A stretch of DNA of 14,988 nt from a virus (lineage: Duplodnaviria > Heunggongvirae > Uroviricota > Caudoviricetes). The stretch covers positions 1 through 14,988 of the IMG/VR virus record IMGVR_UViG_3300029184_000014. One strand, 5' to 3'. The position numbers were made by a program. Below, piece after piece: positions 12,001 through 14,988 of the stretch; position 1 is the first letter of the stretch; every line of letters starts with the position of its first letter.

Positions 12001-14988
12001 AATTCTGTAATTATAGGCACATCATCAAGAACAGTTGGATTACGGACATCATTTACAGAGTTTTGTTTCTTTGCATTATCTATTTCTTCCTTATTAAAAA
12101 TATCCTCTGAAAAAAATCTAATTATAGTACTCACACGTTGCAATCCATCGATAACCTCCTGCTTACCATTATTATCAATGTAGAAAAAAAGTGTTGGCGT
12201 AGGTATATTTAAAAGTAATGACTCGATAAATTGGCTTTGTCTTGCGTTATCCCAACGAAAAAGCCTTTGGTAGTCTGGAGAAATGGTTATCTCATTTTCT
12301 TTATATAGATTAATTACTTCACGCCATGATATGGTATAAGAATCAGTTACTACCTCATCTCTTTTTTCATCTATCTGAGATAGCAATTTAGTTACGTCAT
12401 TCATTTTGTTATCCTTATGATTTTTTCAAAATAAACTTTATCTTTAATATAATTTTTTGACTTGGTATTTATTTGTCCAAATATTGCTTTAACTTGATCT
12501 TCTCTCACACATTTCGCTTCTGAAAACCCAATAGAAAGCGCCATTTCACAATAAATATCATAAAGCGGAATCTCTATTTCCTTATAATATGAATTTTGTA
12601 TTACAAAATAACCAGAGCAACCTACCTTTAAAACTCTAAAGATTTCCATTAATGACTCATACGCATCAGAAAAATATCTAATTTTATTTTTAAGGTAATA
12701 ACTTCCAGATGCTCTTGATGTATGCGATGTTACCGATGACAAAACATCCATACACAATGGCCCCCATTTTTTATTAATTTCATCCGCAACTTTAGGCACA
12801 GTCGTCGTGCCCATCATTTCCTTTCTAAGAGACTTATATCCCTCACTCCCTAAAATTATTTCCAACTCAAGACGAGTAGAAACGGCATAGTCTATTCGTG
12901 TTAAATACGGTGGCGATGTAATAACAAGATCAATTGTGTTACTTTTAATATTTAATTTTTTACTATCCACGTTTAAAATCGAGTAACATGCCCCCCCATT
13001 AGCGCTGCCATAATATTCACTTAACTGCTCACGCATAATTTTAAAATTTTTATTATATTCAAAACAAATATCAAATTTATTATTAAAGTCTACTTTTTTA
13101 GAAATCCATGTAGGATTTGAAGTTGACCTAACATCAAGGACATTGCGAACAGTATAAAATAAAACACTGCAATAAAATGCTTTTAAAGGATTTACGATAT
13201 CATTTTGTCCTTTATCCATAAACTGATCACAGATACATTTATAAAACTTTTGTAACTGTTCAATAAGTGGATAGCCCTTCGATGACTCAGTTATATCTTT
13301 TGTTTTTTTTCTAAAGCAAAGCAGTATCCTTTCCAGGAGTTGCTCTCCGGTATAATCCAGCGCTGAAATATTATCCCTACTTTTGGCTGCAGCAAAATAG
13401 CTCATAACAGGATTAATATCTGCTCCAATACACTTTATGGTTTGCTTTTGACAAACTATACCAGTGGTACCGCTTCCCATCCAAGGATCAAGAACGGTAG
13501 CGGACGACTTAACTCCTTCAGCCTGCAAAACAGAAGCCACAAATGACTCTGAATAGCCCGCATAGTATGGATGCCAAGAGTGAAGCCCCTTGCGTTCGTT
13601 TCTCCCTCTTTTCGCGCCTGCAATCATCTTTAAATCACTTACCCAAAATTTTCAATTGAGGCTCATAATACGGGGATCCGTATAAGCTCAAAATTTGCTC
13701 CTGAAGTTAACTGATTAGGATACTTGAAACACAGAGTCTTTCAATAATGATTAAGCAATCCTGCGTAAGTGCTCTCCTCAACATGCCTGCCTGCTTCACA
13801 TGGTCAATTCTCCTGCATACGTATGGCAAAAAGCCTATCAGAATCGGTAGTTTTCAACATAAACTCCCACCAGCCACAGAACACAATATTACGACATAAA
13901 AAATATCAACCAATTAACGCATCGATAAGCTAGACGGCTAGCGAACTCAATTTTGAACTACCTTTTAAACAACCCTTTATCGCCGCAGCCTGTCCGGTTT
14001 CTTCCACTGATACGGCCTCACATCATCATGCTGGTGGCGTTCCTGTTGCAGCACAACGGAAACAGGCGCTGAACACCTGTTAATTTTGCTTGCTGGTTGT
14101 TTGATTTCGGCAATGCTGCGGAGCATCTCCAGCATATCGGCTTCGGTGATGGTCATGATTTACACCTTAGGAAATCTTAGGGGCTGGTTGACACTTTCCG
14201 GCTTAAGACCTTAATAAATCTTAATACCGCAGGTTGACACACTTGACACTTTTTCGCGAAAAACCTTATCAAACCTTAGCATTTCTAAGCATGGCAACTT
14301 GACACTTTTCGCTATTTTTTCGGTTTTTTGACGTGGTGAATATGGTACAAGGCCAGTAATGGCGAGGCATCCAGCGAGGTTGACACTTTTTCGCGTTCAG
14401 AGTGTAAAGTGTCAACCTGGCAAACTGCTCAACTTGACACTTTTTGAGGTCATTGATGGCCTGATTTTTCCCATTCAGCCAGGGCGTTTAGTCCTGCCTC
14501 ACTCCATGTGTCCTGTTCATCGGGACAATCGCTGGCAACATAGCAGAGTTCGCAACGCAGCATACGAATTGCCAGCCTGGCATTACCTCGCAAATTGTAT
14601 TTTTCAAAGTAATGCTGCCCTTCATCATCCTCAAGACAGATAGCACCATCATCAAGAAAGTGCACTTCCCAGCCTAATTCCCCGGCTGCATACAGCACAC
14701 GCTGCTGTATGCCCTCGTCCGTTACTGGCGCAGGAATTTTACCGTCTCTGGCCTTAACTGCTTTCCAGAACTCGCCCCATGTCATTTCCAGCGTTCTTTC
14801 TGGCCACATTTCAGAAATGGTGTCTTTCCCCTGTGCTGGTGGGCTGTTCCGCTGCTCTGTCGCTTCCACATCAATTTTTTTACCGGACATGACCACTTCG
14901 CCTTTCTCGAGCCAGTCGTAAACTGTCTGGCGGCTTACGCCTTTGTATTTGGCGTATTCGGCTTTACTCATCAACATGTAGCTCACCT

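Follow-up and report, generated by a model that had tools for sequence, protein, structure and literature searches.

A conserved TTGACAC array beside a winged-helix protein gene in a tRNA-Thr phage satellite: a candidate origin-like assembly site

A 14,988-bp stretch of viral DNA (Caudoviricetes; positions 1 to 14,988 of IMG/VR record IMGVR_UViG_3300029184_000014; hereafter the window) carries near its right end a dense array of TTGACAC repeats between two minus-strand genes, one encoding a 175-aa protein with a helix-turn-helix (HTH) domain and the other a 59-aa open reading frame (ORF; orf59). Both genes lie where a preliminary description of this DNA had placed them (Table 1). All seven TTGACAC copies of the window fall within 14188-14440, six on the plus strand and one inverted, matching the earlier count of at least six direct copies and one inverted copy; the expectation is 2.2 copies for the whole window and 0.043 per 293 bp, and the Poisson probability of seven or more is about 5e-14. 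The array is part of a phage-inducible chromosomal island (PICI)-type satellite at tRNA-Thr and does not belong to the lambdoid prophage beside it, in keeping with the earlier suggestion of a separate integrative element abutting the prophage. Positions 13640-14988 are 99.9% identical to Escherichia coli PD23, where an island of about 17 kb is inserted at tRNA-Thr between proA and yagU.

Table 1. Coordinates of the array components, the flanking genes and the downstream cargo in the window
Feature	Position	Strand	Remarks
Site 1, TTGACACTTT	14188..14197	+	left set, -163 relative to box
Sites 2 and 3, tandem pair 9 bp apart, TTGACACAC TTGACACTTT	14234..14252	+	-117, -108; TTGACAC at 14234, 14243
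Site 4, TTGACACTTT	14299..14308	+	-52; one of the best-conserved columns
T-rich stretch TTTCGCTATTTTTTCGGTTTTTTGACGTG, conserved, 29 bp, 69% A+T	14306..14334		weak candidate unwinding region
G+C-rich box GGCCAGTAATGGCGAGGCATCCAGCGA, ~27 bp, between copies 4 and 5	14351..14377	+	
Site 5, TTGACACTTT	14380..14389	+	+29, adjoins box
Inverted site 6, AAAGTGTCAA, with degenerate copy GTGTAAA 9 bp before	14400..14415	-	+58; TTGACAC 14409-14415
Site 7, TTGACACTTT	14434..14443	+	+83; 7 nt from HTH-gene stop codon
Second motif, ACCTTAnnAAAnCTTAG(CATTTCTAAGCAT)	14164..14289, copies at 14164, 14208, 14263, 14273		interleaved with TTGACAC sites
Gene, 175-aa winged-helix protein, presumed TTGACAC binder	14450..14977	-	start ATG 14977, MLMSKAEY
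orf59, 59-aa ORF, travels with long-form array	13977..14156	-	27/116 related contigs
Defence cargo, three-gene operon downstream of array	10529..13627	-	DNA methyltransferase, DUF262/GmrSD_N, HEPN protein

The extended iteron reads (C/G)TTGACACTTT(T) and is often followed by CGCG. A second reiterated motif had been reported between the repeats and proved genuine: ACCTTAnnAAAnCTTAG occurs at four positions and forms, together with TTGACAC, composite units of about 55 bp, and two of its copies overlap one-mismatch matches to the integration host factor (IHF) consensus (14204-, 14267+). The inverted pair described earlier is also present, but its length of 9 bp had been set too short, as the arms (14374-14389 and 14406-14421) span 16 nt and are 94% complementary. 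The tandem pair on the left is mirrored on the right by an oppositely oriented pair of one degenerate and one perfect copy. The preliminary description had overlooked the conserved G+C-rich box, of which the part at 14351-14370 differs from the consensus AGCCAGTAnTGGCGnGGCTT by two mismatches (chance expectation 0.01). A consensus scan of the array found no sigma-70 promoter, which agrees with the earlier view that simple tandem promoters are unlikely, and a promoter and terminator scan placed a weak terminator-like hairpin at the end of the HTH gene. The minus strand has weak -10-like hexamers (TAAGAT/TAAGGT), located within the second motif at 8-11 nt downstream of TTGACAC sites, and orf59 has a good Shine-Dalgarno sequence ahead of it. 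No RNA gene was returned by Rfam for 13600-14988 at a permissive threshold, no tRNA was found in the window, and comparison of the array with phages by megablast and sensitive blastn gave no meaningful match.

The repeats and the HTH protein occur together across genera. A survey of one genome per species found 24 loci with a gene for a relative of the protein. In 11 of these, representing Escherichia, Rouxiella, Raoultella, Buttiauxella, Pantoea, Lelliottia, Pseudocitrobacter, and Enterobacter, TTGACAC clusters come straight after the gene. Three more loci (L006, L010, and L018) have the cluster 1.5-4 kb downstream of the gene and flanked on each side by cargo, and these displaced arrays fit an essential cis site better than a local operator. 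When the diverged intergenic regions were aligned, the conserved islands were TTGACACTTT and AAAGTGTCAACCTG, which supports the protein-binding character proposed earlier for the repeats; likewise, the suggested search of genomes with HTH homologues showed that the motif co-occurs with proteins whose DNA-binding N-terminal domain is nearly invariant. Scanning IMG/VR for the inverted pair yielded 116 contigs, mostly of 9-18 kb, among which 106 encode the HTH protein at a median gene-array distance of 82 bp; one of the remaining ten (L225) encodes a relative that is more divergent and retains the SRQ..Y.W recognition helix. The arrays exist in a long form with 6-7 sites and the box (43 contigs) and in a short form with 2-3 sites and no box (62 contigs), the latter being essentially the inverted pair plus one site beside the gene. 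Across 39 distinct long-form arrays, all sites hold fixed positions relative to the box (the offsets are given in Table 1), and the best-conserved part is the central ~150 bp, which comprises GCATTTCTAAGCAT, site 4, the T-rich stretch, the box, site 5, and the inverted site. In the related satellite contigs, the box is confined to the array.

The HTH gene is preceded by the Shine-Dalgarno sequence AGGTGA, 5 nt upstream of its start, and its product belongs to a family of 112 sequence clusters; every one of these is from Enterobacterales and has either no name or a generic one. An alignment of 24 members revealed that the first ~45 residues (MLMSKAEYARHRGVSRQTVYDWIAKGEVVMSGxKIDVEATE) are near-invariant, while the remainder is 33-37% identical. 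In an AlphaFold model (predicted local distance difference test, pLDDT, 87), an N-terminal winged helix is joined through a disordered linker to an alpha/beta C-terminal domain. Profile searches gave sub-threshold matches to HTH_17/excisionase models and to the N-terminus of a small-terminase family, the latter being the best PHROG. The fold class of the N-terminal domain includes Xis, Cox, BldC, and MerR-type regulators as well as the DNA-binding domains of small terminases (TerS), lambda Nu1, and RppC. A BFVD fold search matched the HTH domain only, PADLOC returned no match for the protein, and sequence searches of the PDB with the single sequence and with a profile found nothing significant.

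Every related satellite has an iteron array directly 3' of its replicase gene, and the repeat of that array is lineage-specific (GGTAGAC, ACTGTTCAC, GGTATACAC, TTATCTACCTT, TGAACCGAC, or TGGGAYAAGT). The replicases themselves vary between D5_N-type and Toprim+DUF927 proteins, and TTGACAC is present with both. Because it stays constant across these replicase changes, TTGACAC appears to be the cognate of the invariant HTH N-terminal domain rather than of the primase. The primase was rejected as its binder, since the primase-adjacent iterons co-vary with the replicase and TTGACAC does not; this co-variation suggests that the HTH protein binds the TTGACAC sites. In the studied element, the canonical PICI origin 3' of the primase gene (L001 24640-25005) consists of about 14 GGTAGAC copies in both orientations around a strongly A+T-rich core and lacks the box. 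The TTGACAC array is thus a second iteron cluster, 4 kb from the primase-adjacent one, with a different repeat and a different presumed binder. Further replicase-adjacent arrays were located at L018 9697-9910, L013 8621-8867, L003 5914-6018, L005 5288-5548, and L006 8647-8929, and the L018 repeat ACTGTTCAC resembles the P4 type-1 octamer TGTTCACC.

The box has the consensus AAGCCAGTAnTGGCGCGGCTTnCAGSG (~27 bp) and is shared with annotated or tested origin regions. A pattern drawn from the array box, AGCCAGTAnTGGCGnGGC, matched at least 120 viral contigs, none of which carries TTGACAC; in these, different short repeats flank the box on both sides. In the commonest class, it lies inside a lambdoid gene O (Pfam Phage_rep_O, followed by a DnaB-like helicase gene) in the order four iterons, box, four iterons, A+T-rich run, which is where the origin is annotated in gene 18 of P22, a phage without the box. 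In P1, the box reads AAGCCAGACGTGGCGCGGCC and occupies the space that separates the five incC iterons from the GATC heptamers in the annotated oriR (L153 6806-6833), and the P1-like phage-plasmid SJ46 has it upstream of repA in the same layout (L152 4001-4026). The PICI EcCICFT073 carries the box TGCCAGTAATGGCGCGGCTT (L027 14187-14206) among GGTAGA iterons in the 290 bp directly 3' of pri, a region reported to be a functional ori (Fillol-Salom et al. 2018, PMC6092414). Elsewhere, the neighbors of the box in Chi-like phage 37 are an HTH gene and divergently oriented helicase/primase genes; it also forms an inverted pair 170 bp apart just after the primase-helicase gene of a high-GC phage contig (L092, and likewise L028), and lies 45 nt upstream of rep in a 4.9-kb Klebsiella plasmid. 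Overall, 357 plasmids contain the box, and 258 of these are typed as non-mobilizable. Further copies were located at L036 4102-4121, L151 447-472, and L154 2501-2526.

The conservation of the box across unrelated initiator classes argues for sequence-specific recognition. Its ends could pair as a hairpin (AAGCC...GGCTT); however, natural variants, compared by eye, alter one arm with no compensatory change in the other, and a duplex recognition site for some factor is therefore likelier. Comparison by eye with the sigma-54 promoter, IHF, Fis, SlmA, and FadR consensuses gave no fit. The reverse-complemented box resembles the ColE1 nic region, TACTGGCTT, a probable coincidence, as there is no linked relaxase and most plasmids with the box are non-mobilizable.

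We tentatively favor reading the array as an origin-like assembly site of the iteron type to which the adjacent protein binds and which serves as a second origin or a cis replication element, and we hold this to be the best of the available explanations while stopping short of calling it probable. The strongest single argument is the presence of an origin-core box at fixed geometry. As in iteron-type origins, seven sites conserved across genera are packed into 253 bp and the core box adjoins them. Two repeat sets flank the central core, an organization described for PICI origins (PMC6092414). Moreover, TTGACAC tracks the HTH N-terminal domain and not the replicase, and P4 offers a precedent for two separated iteron clusters that are both required. 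Between the two element origins considered in the preliminary description, replication iterons are the better supported because of the box, whereas a mobilization origin gains no support because no relaxase was found in the element; an oriT was likewise rejected on these grounds and because the plasmids that carry the box are mostly non-mobilizable. Mechanistically, the N-terminal winged helix of the HTH protein would bind the iterons in both sets, and the protein could wrap the DNA, aided by bends at the second motif with its IHF-like matches. The wrapped complex might then promote opening or priming at the T-rich stretch and box, so that the excised satellite would have in the array a second origin or a cis replication element, with the variable C-terminal domain possibly recruiting a helicase or primase from the satellite, the host, or a helper phage.

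Known replicons resemble the array in part. The backbone of the island matches that of the characterized PICI EcCICFT073 (int, alpA, Icd-like, DUF4222, primase at 43% identity, and PerC), and the origin of that PICI likewise has a core flanked by two sets of short iterons, present in both orientations, and the same G+C box. It differs in lying directly 3' of pri and in using GGTAGA iterons, whereas the primase-adjacent GGTAGAC array of the studied element lacks the box. In P1 oriR and SJ46, an iteron set abuts the same box and an initiator-type gene adjoins; however, P1 has GATC heptamers and DnaA boxes beyond the box and confines its 19-bp RepA iterons to one side, while the studied array has neither GATC nor DnaA boxes, carries iterons on both sides, and is accompanied by a protein unrelated to RepA. 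The lambdoid O origins that bear the box (for example, those of CUS-3, Stx2a 981509, and HK75) show the order four iterons, box, four iterons, and their O initiator likewise combines an N-terminal winged helix with a C-terminal recruitment domain. These origins nevertheless lie inside the initiator gene, are followed by a clear A+T-rich run, and are served by a Phage_rep_O initiator, in contrast to the studied array, which is downstream of a gene whose HTH product has no Phage_rep_O match. In P4, crr lies beside the primase gene alpha, and ori, at a distance of about 4.5 kb, neighbors the Xis-like vis, which marks the border of the morphogenesis operon, but both P4 clusters carry the same alpha-binding octamer and no G+C box, whereas the clusters of the studied element differ in repeat.

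Several observations weigh against the origin-like reading. The array contains no GATC and no DnaA box even with one mismatch allowed; DnaA boxes and GATC repeats characterize the P1 subtype, and lambdoid and some PICI origins also lack them. The T-rich stretch is conserved but far weaker as an A+T-rich element than that of the primase-adjacent origin. No recognized initiator (RepA, O, or Pri-Rep) was found next to the array, where the protein matched only generic HTH_17, excisionase, and TerS models. Because an initiator of a recognized class and DnaA or GATC elements are missing and the candidate unwinding region is weak, we describe the site as origin-like and do not file it as an origin. 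Since the element already has a canonical primase-adjacent origin, a second one is not needed a priori, and more than half of the related arrays are of the short form that lacks the box. Replication initiators are usually common to plasmid and phage replicons, yet tblastn with the HTH protein found no relative in 50,697 phage records or 72,556 plasmids. Two of the box contexts are also not obviously theta origins. One is found in P2-like contigs (L091 2890-3560; L048, L051, L078, L084, and others), where the portal gene stands on one side of the box and gene A on the other; in the second context, the box separates int from a tRNA fragment. The P2-like site adjoins a very G+C-rich segment and repeated TGCRG motifs; a cos region, a lagging-strand priming site, and a plasmid-type origin of a phage-plasmid are candidates for it. 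Furthermore, the N-terminal domain of the HTH protein is nearest to small-terminase DNA-binding domains, its gene is the last of the post-primase "packaging/interference" module, and neither lambda cosN nor Rpp occurs in any of the 116 related contigs.

The last of these points lead to the most serious competitor, which we nonetheless consider rather unlikely, namely that the array is a packaging-recognition site analogous to cosB or pac, at which a TerS-derived HTH protein, an analogue of Rpp, directs the helper terminase to satellite DNA. The N-terminal domain belongs to the fold class of TerS, lambda Nu1, and RppC, with a TerS-family N-terminus as the best PHROG, the protein family is satellite-specific, and gene and array occupy the position of rppA and cos1/cos2 in EcCICFT073, at the end of the post-primase module and before the cargo. 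Searches of the full element for lambda cosN, P2/P4 cos, and P22 pac found none inside the satellite, and no Rpp was seen, leaving no other packaging determinant visible. In lambda cosB, spaced sites have IHF matches between them, which the ~55-bp spacing of the array with its interposed IHF-like matches recalls. In addition, 12 nt of the array (TTTTCGCTATTT, 14309-14320) are identical to L027 17577-17588, a cosN-proximal segment common to lambda and EcCICFT073 cos1; this identity, part of which is the usual TTGACAC flank, may be due to chance. On the other hand, no cleavage site was recognized, no sequence similarity to Rpp or to TerS chains in the PDB was detected, and the homologous DNA-binding domain occurs in no phage searched. 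The N-terminal winged helix of TerS is there, but no TerS match extends past residue ~50, and neither the helical oligomerization core nor the TerL-binding C-terminus of TerS was found; the alpha/beta C-terminal domain is unlike TerS oligomerization cores and Rpp dimerization helices. The box, a replication-origin hallmark, is unlike any known cos or pac site. In the Rpp-cosB system (Fillol-Salom et al. 2019, PMC6739421), a small TerS-like winged-helix protein is also encoded beside the cis site at the end of the late module; the studied element, however, lacks cosQ/cosN and has an origin-type box at the cis site. Membership of the protein in Rpp was rejected for the lack of sequence similarity and the different C-terminal fold, and because one defining feature failed in each comparison, array and protein are assigned neither to Rpp/cos nor to TerS proper nor to P4 ori/crr.

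A broader proposal joins elements of both readings and is, as a whole, more doubtful than packaging alone. The module might be a helper-exploiting device, either a helper-dependent second origin whose C-terminal domain recruits a helper helicase or an Rpp-independent packaging-initiation complex for "type C" PICIs, with the box as a host-factor site common to P1-type, lambdoid O-type, PICI, and Chi-like origins.

Less plausible than either is an operator array, one of the options in the preliminary description, through which a Cox-, BldC-, or MerR-like HTH protein would control leftward transcription into orf59 and the cargo, or insulate the cargo from the late operon; we regard this role as improbable. 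The fold class does include Cox, BldC, and MerR-type regulators that bind repeat arrays, the short form with its inverted pair and single site beside the gene has the look of an operator, and the array is always upstream of co-oriented cargo. The minus-strand -10-like hexamers and the Shine-Dalgarno sequence ahead of orf59 point the same way, but the consensus scan found no promoter, a fixed geometry over 290 bp with an origin-core box exceeds what an operator needs, and the arrays of L006, L010, and L018 lie kilobases from the gene with cargo on either side.

It is very unlikely that the array is a recombination-directionality or cassette-exchange site at which an Xis-like protein bends DNA for a site-specific recombinase: the array and the attachment end are 3.6 kb apart, PICI excision is known to be regulated by AlpA, the module has no linked recombinase gene, and the box is origin-associated. 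Chance clustering or tandem sigma-70 promoters, the latter suggested by the match of TTGACA to the -35 consensus, have a negligible standing and are effectively refuted by the Poisson probability, the promoter scan, conservation past the hexamer (TTGACACTTT), and the fixed geometry, shared across genera, of sites in both orientations.

PICI-type satellites abound in Enterobacterales, where their cargo includes defense and virulence genes, and many have been classed as possibly defective because no packaging module or complete life-cycle module could be recognized in them. Such a description has been given of the characterized thrW element EcCIMP1 (PMC11773190). The protein and array are a candidate for the missing cis function in PICIs, whether a second origin or a packaging signal. 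Iterated sites beside an HTH gene in a mobile element are of a familiar kind, but this protein family and its array are widespread, sit at a place where many PICIs have no identifiable function, and to our knowledge have not been described. The "G+C-rich stretch" of P1, moreover, appears here as a specific ~27-bp element conserved across replicons, which may interest replication specialists. A review that cites the work on P1 says of the role of such G+C-rich flanks that it "has remained unclear" (PMC5043065).

The PD23 island begins with an integrase, an AlpA-type regulator, an antirepressor, an Icd-like protein, DUF4222, a 601-aa primase-family protein, and ProQ/FinO, and continues with PerC, a few small or membrane proteins, the 175-aa HTH protein, the array, orf59, and the cargo. 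The module is present in about 170 complete E. coli genomes and absent from EcCIMP1. In strain TUM9757, other genes stand on either side of the HTH gene, array, and orf59, which indicates that this trio forms a conserved module bordering a hotspot of variable cargo. The cargo of the window comprises a type II-like methyltransferase, a DUF262/GmrSD_N protein with PADLOC matches to NsnA (E 1e-55) and PD-T4-2_A (E 1e-41), and a HEPN protein of the RiboL-PSP/MAE_28990 type; related elements carry other genes in its place.

Window positions 121-10134 correspond to the early region of the lambdoid prophage, with P, O, cII, cI, bet, exo, xis, and a split int. The O gene of this prophage (819-1838) contains no G+C box. 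The prophage int is split between two ORFs that overlap (8963-9430 and 9337-10134), an arrangement suggestive of a frameshift. PD23 retains just the last ~155 bp of the prophage int beside the same cargo, which indicates that prophage and satellite stand in tandem.

An ORF of about 55 aa (MKNHGVKPVLLSRRQIEALQRIQDEERQKS...) heads the post-primase module in 101 of the 116 related contigs (for example, L001 21707-21874, L271 18681-18815, and L013 8958-9182). It is also found in EcCIMP1, where it precedes homologues of P22-like ejection proteins, and its product may regulate the late operon of the satellite. At loci of Lelliottia, Enterobacter, and Buttiauxella (L012, L015, and L016; ~9500-10500), the HTH gene and a short-form array directly follow proB-proA with no satellite backbone, and these loci look like deletion remnants that keep the distal module only.

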